A DNA stretch of 64,000 bases, from NCBI RefSeq assembly GCF_016903815.1, contig NZ_CP069973.1. The stretch is one strand, 5' to 3'. This stretch comes from Escherichia coli. GTDB taxonomy: Bacteria > Pseudomonadota > Gammaproteobacteria > Enterobacterales > Enterobacteriaceae. Below, in pieces: positions 18,358-31,347 of the stretch. The notes beneath the pieces are model-generated. The model ran no database searches. It saw only the letters and a list, made by a program, of their open reading frames with translations, and was not told the DNA's origin. Each line of letters starts with the position of its first letter. The stretch's first letter is position 1. The translations under genes were made by a program, and so were the position numbers.

Positions 18358-20145
<1,788 letters not shown>

Positions 20146-20538: not shown

Positions 20539-20979
20539 ATGACTTCTGAAGTGAAACTGAAAACCGGTGGTGACCCCCGGTCATTACCGGATTATGCTGC
20601 CCTGCGCGATGAAATCAGCAAACTGACCCACCCGGCACGCCCTGATGTGGACTGGCGTTACGTGGAAACGCTCTGCCTGCGTCTGTATGAACACAATGGC
20701 GTGGAATTACAGACGGCATCCTGGTACACCATTGCCCGGATGCATACAACAGGGTTAAGTGGTCTGAATGAAGGGCTGGCTCTGATTGCTGCGCTGACCC
20801 GGCATCACTGGTCAGTGATGTGGCCGCTGAATACACACTCCCGGCTGGAAATTATTACCGGTCTGTTCAACCGTCTGCAAAAAACGCTCCGGGCCATGCC
20901 TCCGGATAACCGTGACAACCTGCCCCTGCTGTATCAGACCGAAACATTCCTGAAGACACTGAGTGATCTCCTTCCATGA
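20539..20979 (+). CDS. ImpA_N-like domain protein (T6SS TssA/VasL N-terminal domain family)
   Basis: Pattern [13 protein letters not shown]...[15 protein letters not shown]...[13 protein letters not shown] resembles ImpA_N; stop lies 45 bp before IS2. Confidence 0.45.
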
Positions 20980-21114
20980 AAATACGCAGGCTTGGCACGA
21001 ACTTAAACAGAGCAGTAAAGTGGTAGACTGGCCCCCTGAATCTCCAGACAACCAATATCACTTAAATAAGTGATAGTCTTAATACTAGTTTTTAGACTAG
21101 TCATTGGAGAACAG

Positions 21115-21480
21115 ATGATTGATGTCTTAGGGCCGGAGAAACGCAGACGGCGTACCACACAGGAAAAGATCGCAATTGTTCAGCAGAGCTTTGAACCGGG
21201 GATGACGGTCTCCCTCGTTGCCCGGCAACATGGTGTAGCAGCCAGCCAGTTATTTCTCTGGCGTAAGCAATACCAGGAAGGAAGTCTTACTGCTGTCGCC
21301 GCCGGAGAACAGGTTGTTCCTGCCTCTGAACTTGCTGCTGCCATGAAGCAGATTAAAGAACTCCAGCGCCTGCTCGGCAAGAAAACGATGGAAAATGAAC
21401 TCCTCAAAGAAGCCGTTGAATATGGACGGGCAAAAAAGTGGATAGCGCACGCGCCCTTATTGCCCGGGGATGGGGAGTAA
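21115..21480 (+). CDS. insC: IS2 transposase OrfA (InsC)
   Basis: Starts [26 protein letters not shown]. Confidence 0.85.
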
Positions 21481-22343
21481 GCTTAGTCAGCCGTTGTCTC
21501 CGGGTGTCGCGTGCGCAGTTGCACGTCATTCTCAGACGAACCGATGACTGGATGGATGGCCGCCGCAGTCGTCACACTGATGATACGGATGTGCTTCTCC
21601 GTATACACCATGTTATCGGAGAGCTGCCCACGTATGGTTATCGTCGGGTATGGGCGCTGCTTCGCAGACAGGCAGAACTTGATGGTATGCCTGCGATCAA
21701 TGCCAAACGTGTTTACCGGATCATGCGCCAGAATGCGCTGTTGCTTGAGCGAAAACCTGCTGTACCGCCATCGAAACGGGCACATACAGGCAGAGTGGCC
21801 GTGAAAGAAAGCAATCAGCGATGGTGCTCTGACGGGTTCGAGTTCTGCTGTGATAACGGAGAGAGACTGCGTGTCACGTTCGCGCTGGACTGCTGTGATC
21901 GTGAGGCACTGCACTGGGCGGTCACTACCGGCGGCTTCAACAGTGAAACAGTACAGGACGTCATGCTGGGAGCGGTGGAACGCCGCTTCGGCAACGATCT
22001 TCCGTCGTCTCCAGTGGAGTGGCTGACGGATAATGGTTCATGCTACCGGGCTAATGAAACACGCCAGTTCGCCCGGATGTTGGGACTTGAACCGAAGAAC
22101 ACGGCGGTGCGGAGTCCGGAGAGTAACGGAATAGCAGAGAGCTTCGTGAAAACGATAAAGCGTGACTACATCAGTATCATGCCCAAACCAGACGGGTTAA
22201 CGGCAGCAAAGAACCTTGCAGAGGCGTTCGAGCATTATAACGAATGGCATCCGCATAGTGCGCTGGGTTATCGCTCGCCACGGGAATATCTGCGGCAGCG
22301 GGCTTGTAATGGGTTAAGTGATAACAGATGTCTGGAAATATAG
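21438..22343 (+). CDS. insD: IS2 transposase OrfB (InsD), DDE domain
   Basis: 301 aa overlapping OrfA in -1 frame. Confidence 0.85.
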
Positions 22344-22355
22344 GGGCAAATCCAA

Positions 22356-23084
22356 GTGGCTTTACCGGAAGCCATGGTGAAGGGATATATCACCCGCCTG
22401 GAGAACCAGCCTGTGCAGGGGGAAGTATCGTCTCCGGTAACGCTACTGGCGCAGGCACTCAGGCTTGAAGCTCCGGATGTGCAGGAACATCAGACCCTGC
22501 CGCACTCCCGTCTGGTGTATGTTGTTTCTGAAACAAAAACAGAGCCCACACTCTTCCTTCAAAAATCCCCGCTCACGTTTCTGAAAACGTTTGTTACAGG
22601 TGTCTGTACGGCATTGCTGGCGGTCTGCGTGGCCATTCCGGGATGGCAGTTTCTGACACAGCCATCACCGGCGGAGCAGCAACTCAGGGCGCTGCTGACA
22701 CCCTCACCGGATGTGCTTTCAGCAGACCAGATGATGCAGCTCAGCAGAACACTGTTAAATCATGCGTCAGAGTGGATAACCCTTTCCGGTCAGCAGATAA
22801 CGCGACTGACAGAATTCCCCCCGGCATACAACCTGCAACGCAGTGTGCAATTGCTGCAGCAACTGATGGTACTTTTCCCCGACAATCCTCGTGTTCAGGA
22901 AATGGTGGATAACTGGCAGAAGAGTGCAAGGAGTCGTGCGCTCCCGGAAGAGGCGATGACTGGCTGGAACGAAGGCATGACCCGCTTACAGCTGTTGGCT
23001 GAGCGCCTGAACCGTCCGGATGAACAGCGGGGAAAATACATGACGGTCAGTGAGCTGAAAACGGAGGTGTCTGGCATCATGTAG
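22356..23084 (+). CDS. Hypothetical membrane protein immediately downstream of IS2 (start ambiguous: GTG at 22356 or ATG at 22374; frame stays open upstream across the IS2 site)
   Basis: One predicted TM helix (FVTGVCTALLAVCVAIPGW); possibly C-terminal part of the ImpA_N gene. Confidence 0.4.
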   Translation: MALPEAMVKGYITRLENQPVQGEVSSPVTLLAQALRLEAPDVQEHQTLPHSRLVYVVSETKTEPTLFLQKSPLTFLKTFVTGVCTALLAVCVAIPGWQFLTQPSPAEQQLRALLTPSPDVLSADQMMQLSRTLLNHASEWITLSGQQITRLTEFPPAYNLQRSVQLLQQLMVLFPDNPRVQEMVDNWQKSARSRALPEEAMTGWNEGMTRLQLLAERLNRPDEQRGKYMTVSELKTEVSGIM

Positions 23085-23275
23085 GCTTTTAACCGGCATA
23101 TCCTGGCAGAAGAACAGTTGTGTCACTATGGTGAAGTCCGCAACCAGAATGGAAGCGAGCAGCAGCAAAAACAAATGAAAGATGCATTTGTTAAGCTGAT
23201 TCACGTTTACTGTTTTATATAAAGCCTTTAGGATGTGGGGGAAGGGGAGTGTTGCAATTTATTCGGTGAGATAGT

Positions 23276-23983
23276 TTGTTTGTGGAGTGTTTAAGCGCTT
23301 TTGGATGTTCGTCTGTTGTTTCGAATAGTATGGTGAATATGAATGGTAAATATAATGTCAGGAGTGAATTGTTAGCTCGTTGTATCGGAACTGGTAGATT
23401 GAAAGGAGATGTGAGAAGTGATTTTATTGGGTTTAATGGTAGTAAACAGGTAGGTTATGTTTTATTAACTTTGTTCTTAACGAAAGTAATAAATTCTGAT
23501 TTGCTCTCTCATTATCGTATATTTAATCGTTTTTTGCATTATGAGAGAAAAGTTATGGACATATATAATTCTTTGAGTGATATAGAAGTTGATTGTATTT
23601 GCCAGGAAGTGATGGCTATATATGAACATACTCAGCGATGCTGCAACGAAAAGAAAATCACAACTATCCAGTTAGGCAGGAAACTTAATGGCAGGTATGC
23701 AGATACGATTGCTGAGTTAAAAGAAACAGCAGAGATAAGAGGGGAGGATGTGATTTCTTTTGAGATGGATATATTGAATTCTTTTAATGATGCGGATGAA
23801 TATCACGGACGTGTTAAACTGGAGTTGGATATACCTGCTTCAGATATATTATATTGCCATGATTTTATTGATTCAAAACATGTAAACTCCTGGTTGGTTG
23901 AACCACATGAGTGGGTGGTTATAAATCGTTCTCTCAATGGGATTGTTACAGTGCCAGTATCATCAATAAAGATTCTTTATTGA
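23276..23983 (+). CDS. Hypothetical protein in AT-rich segment, start uncertain
   Basis: 235-aa ORF with visibly low GC compared with neighbours. Confidence 0.35.
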   Translation: MFVECLSAFGCSSVVSNSMVNMNGKYNVRSELLARCIGTGRLKGDVRSDFIGFNGSKQVGYVLLTLFLTKVINSDLLSHYRIFNRFLHYERKVMDIYNSLSDIEVDCICQEVMAIYEHTQRCCNEKKITTIQLGRKLNGRYADTIAELKETAEIRGEDVISFEMDILNSFNDADEYHGRVKLELDIPASDILYCHDFIDSKHVNSWLVEPHEWVVINRSLNGIVTVPVSSIKILY

Positions 23984-24123
23984 TAAATATGTTTGTAATA
24001 TGTTTTATATGTTCATCAGGATGAAAGTAAGCAATTTTAGTAGTGGCTAATTAAACGTCATTTAATGTTTGTTGCTATATGTTGAAAGCATAAACAGGTT
24101 TCTTTTGCATAAAGTAAAAATAA

Positions 24124-25356
24124 ATGAATGATAATTTTTTAACGGAGAAAGTCCTTACTGGAGAGAATGTTCTGCGTGCAGCAATTGCTCGTATTGAGTG
24201 GATTTTTGAAATATTTCCATCAGTTTGTCTCTCTTTTTCCGGTGGTAAAGATTCCACCGTGCTTTTCCATCTTGTGGCTGATGTGGCCCGCAGGAAAAGA
24301 CGTCGTTTCTCTGTACTGTTCATTGACTGGGAGGCTCAGTACCAGTGCACCATTGAACATATTCAGAAGATGCGGGAAATGTACCATGATGTGACGGAAA
24401 CCTTTTACTGGGTGGCGCTTCCCCTGACCACGGTAAACGGTGTCTCGCAGTTTCAACCGGAGTGGATATGCTGGGAGCCTCGTGTGACCTGGGTTCGCCA
24501 GCCACCGGAAGAGGCCATTACGGATATGGCGTATTTTCCCTTTTACCGGTATGCCATGACGTTTGAAGAATTTGTTCCGGCATTTTCTTCCTGGTTTGCT
24601 GGCAACCGGTGTGGAGTGGCAGTGCTGACCGGTGTCCGGGCGGATGAATCCCTCAACCGCTTTATGGGACTGGTGTCCCAGCGCAAACTGAGATATGCCG
24701 ATGATAAGCCTTGGACCACGGCATCGCCTGAAGGGTTTTACTACACTATGTATCCGCTGTATGACTGGAAAACTCGTGATATCTGGATATATCACACCAG
24801 AACCCGTGCCATCTACAATCCCCTGTATGATCTGATGTACCGTGCCGGCGTACCGTTACGCAACATGCGTGTCTGTGAACCTTTTGGTCCTGAACAACGT
24901 AAGGGACTGTGGCTTTACCATGTTCTGGAACCGGAAACCTGGGCCAGGATGTGTGAGCGGGTGTCAGGGGCTGCCAGCGGGGCACTTTATGCCAATGAAA
25001 GCGGGGCTTATTTTGCCCTGCGTAAGCGCATATCAAAACCAGCCCATCATACCTGGCGCAGCTATGCGATGTTTCTGCTGGATGTGATGCCGGAAAGAAC
25101 GGCAGAACATTACCGCAACAAGATAGCTGTCTATCTGCGCTGGTATCAGACGCGGGGCTTCCCGGATGACATCCCGGATGAACAGGAGAATGACCTGGGG
25201 AGCCGGGATATTCCGTCCTGGCGACGTATCTGTAAGACTCTCATAAAGAATGATTTCTGGTGCCGTACCCTCTCCTTCAGTCCGAACAAACCCCGGCACT
25301 ATGAACGTTATCTGCAGCGTATGAAAGAAAGGAGGAAGGAATGGGGGATTCTGTGA
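24124..25356 (+). CDS. ibrA: IbrA-like PAPS-reductase/DndC-like ATP pyrophosphatase family protein
   Basis: PP-loop SFSGGKDS near N-terminus; 410 aa; overlaps downstream ParB-like gene by 16 bp. Confidence 0.7.
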   Translation: MNDNFLTEKVLTGENVLRAAIARIEWIFEIFPSVCLSFSGGKDSTVLFHLVADVARRKRRRFSVLFIDWEAQYQCTIEHIQKMREMYHDVTETFYWVALPLTTVNGVSQFQPEWICWEPRVTWVRQPPEEAITDMAYFPFYRYAMTFEEFVPAFSSWFAGNRCGVAVLTGVRADESLNRFMGLVSQRKLRYADDKPWTTASPEGFYYTMYPLYDWKTRDIWIYHTRTRAIYNPLYDLMYRAGVPLRNMRVCEPFGPEQRKGLWLYHVLEPETWARMCERVSGAASGALYANESGAYFALRKRISKPAHHTWRSYAMFLLDVMPERTAEHYRNKIAVYLRWYQTRGFPDDIPDEQENDLGSRDIPSWRRICKTLIKNDFWCRTLSFSPNKPRHYERYLQRMKERRKEWGIL

Positions 25357-25979
25357 CACCGGAGATACTGAGCAACATGATTCGTCAGTACTTCAGCCAG
25401 GAACGACCAGAAGAAGAGGCCATACAGGCCCTGAATCATCTGCGCAGGGTGCTTCATGAGGTCAGTCCATTTGCACAGGAGCCTGTGGACTGTGTGCTGT
25501 GGGTGAAAGCAGATGAGGTGGTGGCCAACGATTATAACCCCAATGTCATGGCGCCGGGTGAGAAGAAACTGCTGAAACATTCACTGGAGCAGGATGGGTT
25601 CACGCAGCCTGTGGTTGTCTCGGAAGAGAAGGAGCATTATCTGGTCGTGGATGGTTTTCATCGTCAATTACTGGGCAGGGAAGCAGGTACGGGAAAACGC
25701 CTGAAGGGCTGGTTGCCAGTGACCTGTATTAATCCGGAAAGAAAGGGACAGGCCTCACGTATTGCTGCAACCATTAGACATAACCGGGCCAGGGGGAAGC
25801 ACCAGATAACTTCAATGTCTGATATTGTCAGGGACCTGTCGCGGCTGGGCTGGACGGATGAACGTATTGGTACGGAGCTGGGTATGGACCAGGATGAAGT
25901 TCTCAGGTTGAAACAGATTAGCGGGCTGACGGAGCTGTTTCTGGAAGAGGATTTCAGTCCGGCATGGACGATTCGCTGA
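25341..25979 (+). CDS. ibrB: IbrB-like ParB/sulfiredoxin-fold (DGQHR-like) protein
   Basis: VVDGFHRQ motif (DGQHR-like) in a 212-aa ORF. Confidence 0.65.
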   Translation: MGDSVTPEILSNMIRQYFSQERPEEEAIQALNHLRRVLHEVSPFAQEPVDCVLWVKADEVVANDYNPNVMAPGEKKLLKHSLEQDGFTQPVVVSEEKEHYLVVDGFHRQLLGREAGTGKRLKGWLPVTCINPERKGQASRIAATIRHNRARGKHQITSMSDIVRDLSRLGWTDERIGTELGMDQDEVLRLKQISGLTELFLEEDFSPAWTIR

Positions 25980-26018
25980 GACCGTCATATATGTATATTA
26001 TTTCAGTGAGTTAATGTT

Positions 26019-26327
26019 TTGAGCAGGAAAAAGAGTACCCCGGAAGTCGTGGAATACATGGTTGCACAGAAGCTGGAGGCTGCGGGTTGCTGGCGCAGAG
26101 CTTCCGCCCGCTGGCTTTTTGTTATGGGAAATGTTGAATGTACAGAAGCACAACGGGAGTGGTTGTTGTTGCGCAGGAATTATTGCCTGGCGCAGATATC
26201 GTCCCCGCCGCTACCTGAAAAGCTGGATATCAGCGAAGTGGCGAAAGCTGCAGATGCCACGCTGAGGCGAATGGGGATTGCCAGTCCGTCCGGGGAGGTA
26301 TTCAGAAAAGGTACACCGGTCTGTTGA
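26019..26327 (+). CDS. PerC-family transcriptional regulator homolog
   Basis: LEAAGCWRRASARW segment resembles PerC/Pch family. Confidence 0.5.
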   Translation: MSRKKSTPEVVEYMVAQKLEAAGCWRRASARWLFVMGNVECTEAQREWLLLRRNYCLAQISSPPLPEKLDISEVAKAADATLRRMGIASPSGEVFRKGTPVC

Positions 26328-26347
26328 TATTCAGGTAACAGGTATTA

Positions 26348-26992
26348 ATGATGAAGAAAGGAATGGCAAACAGTATATCAATGACATGGCAACTTTTATG
26401 CGATGATCATGGTTTTACCCGGGAGCACTACAATCAGCTGAAGAAATTCAGCCCGGAGGCATTACGTGAAATTATTGCTGAAATAGCCTGCTGCCATCCG
26501 TCAACCAGTATATTGCTCAGGAATAAGTGGCTGACACTGCCGGAGGATATTCCGGAGCAGGTTACCCGTGAATACGAACGAAGAATACAGAACTGTCCAT
26601 CTTTCAGGAGCGAGAAAGAGGCGGAATCCTGGCTAAATGAACTGTTTTTTGCTGTGATTGCGCCGCTATACCGGGTTGTCCCCGGACAATCAGAACAGGT
26701 TGAATCCTTTGTTCTGCAGCTTATTGCCGAACAGGAGCGGGTTTGGGAGCTTATTCTAACCAATGATGGTTATTCATGGCATTGCGCACTTTATGATATA
26801 TTATTTCATCTGGTTTTACGAAATATGGAAGACCAGCCTGAACATCAGAGACAGCGAATAACAAAAATACTTAATGAGTCCGATACAAGGCGGGTTGCAG
26901 AAGAGATTAAATTCCGGATTCAATATCTTCAGGATGAAGAACAAAAGAGAGTTTTAAGTGAGTTGGTAAATGTCCTGATTTCAAAAAGATAA
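26348..26992 (+). CDS. Hypothetical protein
   Basis: 214-aa ORF 20 bp downstream of the PerC-like gene. Confidence 0.4.
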   Translation: MMKKGMANSISMTWQLLCDDHGFTREHYNQLKKFSPEALREIIAEIACCHPSTSILLRNKWLTLPEDIPEQVTREYERRIQNCPSFRSEKEAESWLNELFFAVIAPLYRVVPGQSEQVESFVLQLIAEQERVWELILTNDGYSWHCALYDILFHLVLRNMEDQPEHQRQRITKILNESDTRRVAEEIKFRIQYLQDEEQKRVLSELVNVLISKR

Positions 26993-27427
26993 AACATGTC
27001 GGAGTAATTTTTCTATATATTAAAAAAACAGGTTTGTATTACCATAAAGGAGATCGGTGAATAACCGTTATTGGATGATCTCCTTCCATAAAAATACGCG
27101 CAATCTAACGGTTCGCTCTGTGCCAAAAAAAGACATTGCTCACAATATCGAGTTAATCATTCGGCCGTTGAACATTCCCATTGAAAAATTTCTCAGTATA
27201 GAATATACCAATGTTGAGGGCATTCCTCTTACATCTCGAAGGATAACTATCATGGGTCTAAAACCAGGTCCAAAACCAATTGCTAAGTCAACAGGAAAAC
27301 CGGATCAACGCCGACGCGATAATAAAGATACTCCTGGCAATACTCCGGGATTAAAGCCAAGTAAGTCCACAGGTAAGTAAAAAATAAGGGTATAAATACT
27401 TATTTATACCCTGACTACATATCCAGT

Positions 27428-28252
27428 CTACTGAAGGTGTTTCTGCAGCCAGATGCACGTTCCTTCTATATCATACGCCTGTGCCCCATACCCTTTAGCA
27501 AGCAAAGTCTCTGGTAAATACTCGTCATATTTATCCAGATACTTGTCGGGAACAACTGCAGCAAGCTCAAACTCTGAAGGTAGCCCCGACAATAGCATTT
27601 TCTTAAGTGCACGCTGGACAGAGGCAACGCCTGAGTCCTCTACCTCTATCACACCTGCAAATGAACTGGCTTTAAAGCCACAACGTATAATCAGGGACGT
27701 AATTGTATTGACAATTTTATCCCCCATCCACGGGATCACGTAGCAGTTCTGACCACTGGCAATAAAACAGTCATTTTGTAGATTGTAGCGTTGGAAGTTG
27801 TCACTTCCTTCCGCGAAGAGGCTTCTGGCTGCGGCATCAGCATAATCGACTCTCTTGTTGCCTACCGCGATACGGTAATCATTTTCCCTGTAGATAGTGA
27901 GCATTTCCTGGCGAACAACATCATGAACAGACATCCCGGTACCACTGAATAGTGGCGGCTGACCGCCTTTAGTCGTCTCAACATAGATAACCTTTTTTTC
28001 AACCTCGATCTCTGTCACTTTCCAGCGCCGTCCGCCGAAGATGATGTGCTGCTCCGGCAAAAGTGGGGAGTCTACAGGCACTGTGCCAAGAGTTCGGTTT
28101 CCCGTTACAATGCGAAACTCCTCAGGTGTATTGAATACGGCATAAAACGTGTAGTGATTAGTCAGCTTCTCCCCCTCAGCCCCGACAACTATTTCACCGC
28201 TGGTTAGTTGAGTGAGCAGTACGGGGTCGGACCGGTATGCAGCGAACTGCAT
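27428..28252 (-). CDS. Hypothetical protein abutting an IS junction (possibly N-terminally truncated)
   Basis: 274-aa ORF whose 5' end overlaps the start of the IS3-family OrfB frame on the opposite strand. Confidence 0.4.
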   Translation of the reverse strand: MQFAAYRSDPVLLTQLTSGEIVVGAEGEKLTNHYTFYAVFNTPEEFRIVTGNRTLGTVPVDSPLLPEQHIIFGGRRWKVTEIEVEKKVIYVETTKGGQPPLFSGTGMSVHDVVRQEMLTIYRENDYRIAVGNKRVDYADAAARSLFAEGSDNFQRYNLQNDCFIASGQNCYVIPWMGDKIVNTITSLIIRCGFKASSFAGVIEVEDSGVASVQRALKKMLLSGLPSEFELAAVVPDKYLDKYDEYLPETLLAKGYGAQAYDIEGTCIWLQKHLQ

Positions 28253-28604
28253 ATTGCCCCGTCAACGTATTACCATTGTCAGCAACAGCGACATCATCCG
28301 GATAAACGCAGTGCCCGTGTGCAGCACGATGACTGGCTGAAGAGAGAGATACAGCGCGTATACGATGAAAATCATCAGGTGTACGGTGTGCGTAAAGTCT
28401 GGCGTCAGTTGTTACGGGAAGGAATCAGGGTGGCCAGATGTACAGTGGCGCGCCTCATGGCGGTTATGGGACTTGCCGGTGTTCTCCGGGGTAAAAAGGT
28501 CCGTACGACCATCAGCCGGAAAGCCGTTGCCGCAGGCGACCGCGTAAACCGTCAGTTCGTGGCAGAACGTCCTGACCAGTTGTGGGTGGCTGATTTTACT
28601 TACG
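28208..28604 (+). CDS. IS3-family transposase OrfB, 5' exon
   Basis: Ends ...ERPDQLWVADFTY just before GTGTG. Confidence 0.6.

Positions 28605-31347
<2,743 letters not shown>

Follow-up and report, generated by a model that had tools for sequence, protein, structure and literature searches.

A pchD allele and a gene for a predicted helical-repeat protein downstream of ibrAB homologs in an Escherichia coli genomic island

Two adjoining genes in a 64,000-nucleotide stretch of Escherichia coli DNA (contig NZ_CP069973.1; hereafter, the window) form a pchD–ECs1389 pair, as judged from protein identities to O157:H7 strains EDL933 and Sakai and from the Sakai annotation of the same block. We propose, with about even confidence, that this pair ends an island block of mosaic origin whose genes are transcribed together, in which PchD would serve as an anti-silencer acting away from the LEE and its predicted helical neighbor would tune PchD or an IbrB/PchD complex. 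The identity of the genes contributes little to the uncertainty in this proposal, most of which concerns the partnership and the targets. The gene pchD is already known and named, and the block is a widespread island module, already annotated in some thousand complete genomes. New here are the link between the 214-aa downstream protein and the N-terminal region of DUF6880, together with its predicted helical-repeat fold; the finding that its gene repeatedly lies near PerC genes, in permuted orders, but can also occur apart from them; the apparent cassette structure of the block; and firmer support for one of the candidate start codons of the PerC gene. The sequence gives no hint of a new kind of system, and what the analysis offers is a set of annotations and a testable hypothesis on the phenotype of PchD.

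Organization of the gene block

The original prediction had placed a 102-aa PerC-like open reading frame (ORF) and, 20 bp further on, a 214-aa ORF directly downstream of an IbrAB-like pair. Re-derivation of the ORFs and of the gap returned the same coordinates, lengths, and spacing, and the two IbrAB-like genes do adjoin the pair on its upstream side (Table 1). The ibrA homolog matched Pfam DUF3440 (1e-33) and PAPS_reduct (5.8e-17) in a profile search. The ibrB homolog, named "IbrB-like domain-containing protein" in RefSeq, matched PHROG 2159 (E = 9.4e-82) and, weakly and under the cut-off, Pfam ParB_N (2e-3). An overlapping PAPS-reductase/DUF3440 gene and ParB-like gene, the arrangement that defines an IbrAB pair, are thus both present.

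Table 1. Features of the ibrA–ibrB–pchD–ECs1389 block and its surroundings, in window coordinates
Feature	Position	Strand	Details
Segment orf235, ibrA, ibrB, perC	23174..26369	+	Missing from the collinear E. coli locus L013; apparent cassette boundaries; blastn collinearity
AT-rich intergenic region, 5' of ibrA	23984..24123	+	25% GC; composition
ibrA homolog	24124..25356	+	410 aa; PAPS-reductase-like N-type ATP pyrophosphatase domain and DUF3440
ibrB/ybdM homolog	25341..25979	+	212 aa; ParB-like; overlaps ibrA by 16 bp
perC translation-initiation region	25980..26018	+	Conserved; TTTCAGTGAGTTAATGTT preceding the TTG
pchD-type perC ORF	26019..26327	+	TTG start; 102 aa
perC/214-aa gene spacer	26328..26347	+	20 bp; AGGT Shine-Dalgarno-like motif; no terminator
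214-aa ORF (ECs1389 ortholog)	26348..26992	+	ATG start

All four genes lie on one strand, with gaps of −16 bp (ibrA/ibrB), 39 bp (ibrB/perC, measured to the TTG start), and 20 bp (perC/214-aa gene), and a scan of the + strand from 25431 to 26992 detected no terminator-like site. This layout of a single strand, short gaps, and no internal terminator is that of an operon, although as evidence it is permissive only. In strain C5, the perC stop codon is lost, so that the perC and 214-aa ORFs abut. A promoter for the whole block probably lies in the AT-rich region upstream of ibrA, a suggestion drawn from its composition and position; a consensus scan of these 140 bp returned no strong sigma-70 site, the number of sites in a promoter scan was not above shuffled expectation, and we claim no specific promoter. 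The four genes ibrA–ibrB–pchD–ECs1389 would, on our proposal, be transcribed together from this region; indirect support for a shared transcript comes from the joint rise of ibrB, perC, and hyp3 on adherence (PMC7649339, Table 4). An Rfam scan of positions 22000–29500 detected no RNA family.

The first gene is assigned to the PchD subgroup of the PerC family

The PerC-family assignment made in the original prediction was borne out by profile search, in which the 102-aa ORF matched Pfam PerC (PF06069) at E = 6e-35 (119.8 bits against a gathering cut-off of 22.6; profile positions 5–89 of 90), and RefSeq labels the gene a "PerC family transcriptional regulator". Over the 89 residues annotated by RefSeq, the protein is 96.7% identical to PchD (ECs1388) of EDL933/Sakai, from which it differs by three substitutions, and the block DNA is 93.2% identical to that of Sakai over 99% of its length, with the same flanking genes, as expected of a PchD ortholog. 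On these identities the gene is a pchD allele. An AlphaFold model predicts helices at residues 14–21, 25–38, 43–59, and 71–84, with block-mean pLDDT of 83–92 across residues 14–59, and the protein is basic (pI 9.3). It is therefore, like other members of the family, a small (89–102 aa) helical protein borne on an island, in this case one inserted at tRNA-Phe with an integrase and insertion sequence (IS) elements; the expectation that PerC homologs ride on prophages or islands holds for this pair, which sits in a genomic island behind the IbrAB pair. Likeness of the PerC N-terminus to the ANR family was considered and set aside as insufficient (NCBIfam NF033650, E = 0.045, 13.6 bits against a cut-off of 32), and a sequence search against solved structures returned no match for PerC even at E ≤ 10.

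PerC homologs had also been expected to activate virulence regulators, which applies to other members, namely PerC and PchA/B/C, but should not be assumed for the PchD subgroup. Whereas pchA/B/C are required for full expression of LEE virulence genes, PchD reportedly influences them little (PMC6265319). Among the five perC homologs of EHEC, the locus tags of which are given in PMC1890555, pchD is the sole "group 2" member; its function "remained elusive", and assays of LEE, curli, and biofilm revealed no clear phenotype (PMC6265319).

Start codon of the PerC gene

Three starts are candidates for the gene, namely TTG 26019 (102 aa), GTG 26049 (92 aa), and ATG 26058 (89 aa). RefSeq (PGAP) begins the gene at ATG 26058, and for strain C5 at a GTG equivalent to 26049. 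The ATG 26058 codon is not conserved, being Lys in C5, Thr in locus L026, and Ala in the plasmid allele L020. Alleles down to 56–70% protein identity, by contrast, keep the TTG at 26019, the preceding 20 bases, and the residues SRKKSTPEVVE, and several of the N-terminal changes are synonymous third-position changes even in those distant alleles. The sequence TTTCAGTGAGTTAATGTT before the TTG is kept in all alleles compared, the plasmid alleles L020 and L021 included, and 102-aa PerC forms are common in databases. Because the TTG, its upstream sequence, and the N-terminal residues are conserved and ATG 26058 is not, comparison of alleles makes TTG 26019 (102 aa) the better-supported start than the RefSeq ATG (89 aa).

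The downstream protein resembles the N-terminal region of DUF6880

The 214-aa protein is 87% identical to ECs1389 of EDL933. It had been listed as of unknown function, and it indeed belongs to no Pfam, NCBIfam, PHROG, or PADLOC family; Pfam matches to ZER1-like, Arm-DNA-bind_4, and Crr6 were dismissed as sub-threshold noise, and a profile of the family found no match in the PDB by sequence even at E ≤ 10. Searched exhaustively with HMMER, a set of 1.84 billion cluster representatives gave 36 homologous proteins, many of them fragments, and the weakest phmmer matches were three proteins of ~460 aa (E = 3.5e-5 to 5e-4), all of which Pfam assigns to DUF6880. When the 214-aa family was aligned with the N-terminal ~190 residues of DUF6880, hhalign returned a probability of 99% and E = 5.4e-18 over 182 columns, and both share the motifs L-x-N-x-W-L-x-x-P-x-D-I-L ... 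E-Y. The DUF6880 profile itself (PF21810) did not match the 214-aa protein even at E ≤ 0.1. The full-length DUF6880 architecture (about 415–480 aa) is lacking here: the 214-aa protein corresponds to the N-terminal ~190-residue region only, and the C-terminal ~270 residues of the ~460-aa DUF6880 proteins, where the Pfam model matches best, are missing. On profile comparison, then, the protein is related to the N-terminal domain of DUF6880 but falls outside the family as defined. Its structural model is confident and all-alpha, with only generic helical-repeat structural matches, and the pI is acidic, in contrast to the basic PerC. Accordingly, the prediction is for an acidic helical-repeat protein, all-alpha and with no catalytic signature. 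Literature on DUF3440, DUF6880, DUF6933, and PRiA4_ORF3 yielded nothing informative.

Distribution and selection

The block is common among E. coli. The whole of it (≥80% coverage, in one place) occurs in 969 of 5,426 complete E. coli genomes, the pchD-type perC in 1,095, and the 214-aa gene in 1,061 (19.6%), while the ibrAB part alone was matched in roughly as many further genomes, such as UTI89, Nissle 1917, and EC958. Many E. coli chromosomes match a 4.3-kb region at 100% identity, among them that of strain 7/2, whose copy of the block belongs to an island at tRNA-Phe, together with an integrase and numerous IS elements. Beyond E. coli, a search of 100,044 species-representative genomes for the 214-aa family returned two loci, one on an E. 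coli-like contig in a metagenome-assembled genome and one in Pantoea, the latter with no PerC, and a scan of viral contigs detected no member of the family.

Pairwise Nei-Gojobori estimates of dN/dS between alleles were 0.04–0.08 for ibrA/ibrB (0.06–0.08 for ibrA alone), 0.14–0.40 for perC, and 0.21–0.45 for the 214-aa gene; perC values against L026 were invalid, as an in-frame stop broke the codon alignment. One outlier of 0.90 for the 214-aa gene came from the close alleles of EDL933 and an APEC strain, which have only 7 synonymous differences. Since dN/dS is well below 1 in nearly all allele pairs, the ORFs are real genes rather than chance ones, and by this measure all four are under purifying selection, with the 214-aa gene the fastest evolving.

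Apparent mosaic origin of the block

In the collinear E. coli locus L013, 42 bp separate an intact tssA from a downstream homolog 54% identical to the 214-aa protein, and the 3.2 kb carrying orf235–ibrA–ibrB–perC are missing between the two. The genes also differ in composition, as ibrA, ibrB, and perC have 51%–54% GC and the 214-aa gene has 42.5%. Based on the collinearity with L013 and this difference in GC, ibrA–ibrB–perC looks like a cassette that was inserted directly upstream of a resident gene in a variable region flanking the type VI secretion system (T6SS) gene tssA.

Association of PerC genes with the 214-aa family

Beyond E. coli, distant homologs of the 214-aa protein recur near PerC genes in two further arrangements, both of them devoid of ibrAB. 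In one, a 44%-identical homolog stands between PRiA4_ORF3 and PerC, with the order reversed, a 4-bp stop/start overlap, and a non-T6SS context; in the other, the order is VasL, an HTH protein, PerC, DUF6933, and a 47%-identical homolog, two genes after PerC. The association is not obligate. Other homologs of the 214-aa protein follow tssA, DUF2913, a Crp-like gene, or a ClpX-zinc-finger gene with no PerC, and ibrAB–perC trios with no 214-aa gene occur on the plasmid locus L020 and at L030 and L031 (strain C11), the last of which has a YadA-family adhesin gene following perC. At L026 and L027, perC carries an in-frame stop and the downstream 214-aa gene is intact. As a weak proxy for complex prediction, an AlphaFold model of PerC and the 214-aa protein fused through a (GGGGS)6 linker gave a pTM of 0.51, lowered confidence at the N-terminus of the 214-aa protein, and no confident complex, from an alignment of six natural pairs plus unpaired homologs and with no PAE output. 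The description of the second gene as a partner of the first is only partly supported: co-expression and recurrent linkage speak for it, and the different compositions and histories of ibrAB–perC and the 214-aa gene, each of which is found alone, speak against it.

Proposed function and alternative explanations

Pch (PchA) has been demonstrated experimentally to relieve silencing by H-NS/StpA/Hha/YdgT at its targets (PMC4764244). By analogy with this relative, PchD may loosen the silencing that H-NS imposes on horizontally acquired genes. We would expect its targets outside the LEE; genes for adhesin-type surface proteins, such as those that IbrAB reportedly activates, are plausible candidates. 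A role for PchD in the IbrAB regulatory circuit is suggested by the tight and repeated linkage of perC with ibrAB, by the report of eib activation, and by the YadA-family gene beside one of the trios. The helical-repeat protein would bind another protein, most probably tuning PchD or an IbrB/PchD complex, rather than perform catalysis. A broader generalization, which we consider rather doubtful, is that PerC and DUF6880-N-like helical proteins form a recurrent regulatory unit of Enterobacterales, a basic anti-silencer gated by an acidic partner, which was assembled independently in at least three gene orders and controls adhesin genes or adjacent T6SS-hotspot genes during adherence. If such a two-protein unit were real, the missing PchD phenotype would be explained by earlier tests having been made without ECs1389 and IbrAB.

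The main alternative is that the two genes are accidental neighbors, in that an ibrAB–perC cassette landed before a resident post-tssA gene and read-through produced co-expression with no functional partnership. The structure of L013, the difference in GC, the separate occurrence of each gene, the perC pseudogenes of L026/L027 beside an intact partner, and the lack of a confident AlphaFold2 complex (from only six paired rows) all favor this explanation. However, chance insertion does not readily account for PerC near distant homologs of the 214-aa protein in two ibrAB-less arrangements, one of which has overlapping stop and start codons away from any T6SS; PerC is a rare family, and three independent co-occurrences in about eight lineages are unlikely by chance, on a rough estimate that is not a formal test. 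We regard accidental neighborhood as possible but on the unlikely side, and retain the reading in which the helical protein tunes PchD or IbrB/PchD.

Two functional alternatives concern the surroundings of the block, and both appear improbable. An accessory role in the T6SS, in which the 214-aa protein, perhaps with PerC, would be a regulator, adaptor, or immunity-type protein of the neighboring cluster, is consistent with a tssA/VasL gene or remnant just upstream in the window, in C5, and in L013–L016, and within 3 kb in L010. Yet the T6SS is in fragments, with tssA split by IS2, in the window and in O157, and the 214-aa gene is nevertheless intact and selected in about 1,000 genomes; its homologs also occur in contexts with no T6SS genes, and the position they have in common could stem from the descent of a single chromosomal hotspot rather than from function. 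We give this explanation little credence. The block might instead be an anti-phage defense or DNA-modification module, with IbrA as a DndC/BrxP-like ATP pyrophosphatase and IbrB as a DndB/ParB-like DNA binder, in which PerC would regulate and the helical protein would sense. IbrA does have weak matches to BrxP (1.2e-7) and DndC; the window holds a NERD+UvrD candidate (C3a187, 4e-140) and a remnant of Shango SngC (1.4e-71); and AAA ATPases, an ATP-dependent nuclease, and a type I restriction-modification system lie beside the block in other strains. Nonetheless, no PADLOC model matches PerC, IbrB, or the 214-aa protein (PADLOC-DB v2; none at E ≤ 0.01 for PerC and the 214-aa protein), the 214-aa family is absent from the viral contigs scanned, and phages of many phyla commonly carry IbrAB pairs, often next to antirepressors or close to genome ends. 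Moreover, the sole activity reported for IbrAB, as Sandt et al. (2002) are cited in PMC7649339, is the activation of prophage eib genes. A defense function is accordingly very unlikely in our assessment.

Comparison with known systems

The closest known counterpart is the pchD locus of O157:H7 Sakai and EDL933, which has the same neighbors, with ibrA and ybdM/ibrB upstream and ECs1389 downstream, and lies in an acquired island as well. In the Sakai RefSeq record the block is part of element SpLE1, as ibrA (ECs_1386), ybdM (ECs_1387), pchD (ECs_1388), and a hypothetical gene (ECs_1389), and the window proteins are 95% (IbrA) and 94% (IbrB) identical to those of EDL933. The two loci differ in their insertion site, which is tRNA-Phe beside dsbD in the window-type locus and SpLE1/OI-43,48 in O157, and in the gene upstream of ibrA, which encodes a 235-aa orphan in the window and a helicase/AAA protein in O157. 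With PerC of EPEC and PchA/B/C of EHEC, which are activators of LEE1/ler and counter H-NS, PchD shares PF06069, a small basic helical protein, and carriage on mobile DNA, a likeness that we compared at the family level; the little effect of PchD on the LEE (PMC6265319) sets it apart from them. DUF6880 genes, by comparison, lie in neighborhoods unrelated to the pchD–ECs1389 block in the two cases examined.

With the IbrAB island of ECOR-9, whose products are described as "co-activators of prophage gene expression", the block shares the overlapping PAPS-reductase-like and ParB-like pair; according to the citation of Sandt et al. (2002) in PMC7649339, ibrAB co-activate the eib genes of prophages, which encode adhesins that bind immunoglobulins. 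Many ibrAB loci, such as those of the UTI89/Nissle type and of phage PhiR5_2, have no perC or 214-aa gene.

A probable match to the downstream gene comes from an RNA-seq study of two STEC strains adhering to gut epithelial cells (T84 or Caco-2). In it, ibrB, perC, and the hypothetical gene that comes after them, "hyp3", with consecutive locus tags, were up 2.4- to 7.6-fold on adherence (PMC7649339, Table 4). The gene hyp3 (ECO26_1340) lies within the tellurite-adherence island, was found in 21% of E. coli genomes, and was proposed as a novel STEC virulence gene (PMC7649339). The closed genome of 97_3250, one of the STEC strains in that study, carries the block. Like the 214-aa gene, hyp3 comes right after ibrB and perC, and from the order of locus tags, the island, and the similar prevalence (21% compared with 19.6% here) we infer that the two are the same gene. 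PchD, the one group of EHEC PerC homologs with an elusive role, would thus have as its downstream neighbor in about 1,000 genomes a gene already flagged as a candidate virulence gene, and if the helical-repeat protein is the working partner of PchD, this would provide a concrete reason for the missing phenotype.

Variation around the ibrA-ibrB-perC block

The 214-aa gene, which encodes a predicted helical-repeat protein and adjoins perC, has a different gene in its place in E. coli strain C11 (locus L031), where the ibrA-ibrB-perC trio, at ~80% DNA identity, is directly followed by a gene for a YadA-family autotransporter adhesin. The Eib proteins, reported targets of IbrAB, are members of the YadA-family adhesins. 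Interrupted perC frames were also found: in the allele group of L026 and L027, a Trp codon has become a TGA stop, with the 210-aa gene 3' of this perC remaining unbroken, and the plasmid allele L021 likewise carries an in-frame stop in its PerC frame. A PRiA4_ORF3 (PF07929) gene stands immediately 5' of two distinct genes that are distantly homologous to the 214-aa one (L005/L006 and L009), the order in L005 being DUF4011-helicase, PRiA4_ORF3, 214-aa homologue and PerC.

Secretion and defence genes in the neighbourhood

A tssA/VasL gene or its remnant repeatedly lies just 5' of the 214-aa gene family (strain C5 and loci L013–L016), and within 3 kb of a family gene in L010. In the collinear E. 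coli locus L013, tssA is unbroken and encodes 452 aa, in contrast to the IS2-split copy in the window, and the NERD and UvrD-helicase gene likewise stands before it. The product of the latter gene matched a candidate defence model, C3a187, from end to end (E=4e-140; PADLOC defence-system profiles). Based on the same profile set, the 274-aa ORF aligns with positions 468–719 of 720 in the Shango SngC profile, that is, its C-terminal part, and RefSeq labels it an N-terminally truncated ATP-dependent helicase; this remnant is broken by an IS3-family transposase fragment.

Searches of Pfam, NCBIfam, PHROGs and PADLOC gave no match for either of the two orphan ORFs that border the block, the shorter of which has a tail rich in Lys, Pro and Gly. 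Both the 235-aa and the 107-aa ORF are kept in an APEC O2:K1 strain (88% and 96%, respectively), and both are absent from O157.

Features of the window and of the compared loci
Feature	Location	Strand	Remarks
NERD + UvrD-helicase protein, 595 aa	window 18358-20145	+	PADLOC C3a187
tssA (T6SS; ImpA_N + VasL domains)	window 20539-20979, 21070-22343, 22356-23084		split by IS2
Orphan ORF, 235 aa	window 23276-23983	+	34.5% GC
Orphan ORF, 107 aa	window 27057-27380	+	40.7% GC
SngC helicase remnant, 274-aa ORF	window 27428-28252	-	PADLOC 1.4e-71
IS3-family transposase fragment	window 28208-31347		intron gene inside
ltrA, group II intron reverse transcriptase/maturase	window 29261-30784		interrupts IS3-family transposase fragment
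Divergent ibrA-ibrB-perC trio + adhesin gene	L031 3926-9519		
perC reading frame	L026 4669-4977; L027 100-408		in-frame TGA
PRiA4_ORF3 gene + 214-aa homologue	L005/L006 5374-6917; also L009		

IbrAB-like pairs in phages

When window 24124-25979 was compared with phage records, 225 were found to carry an IbrB-like ParB gene paired with a PAPS-reductase-like gene, frequently near the genome end, in phages whose hosts include Flavobacterium, Mycobacterium, Streptococcus, Arthrobacter and others.
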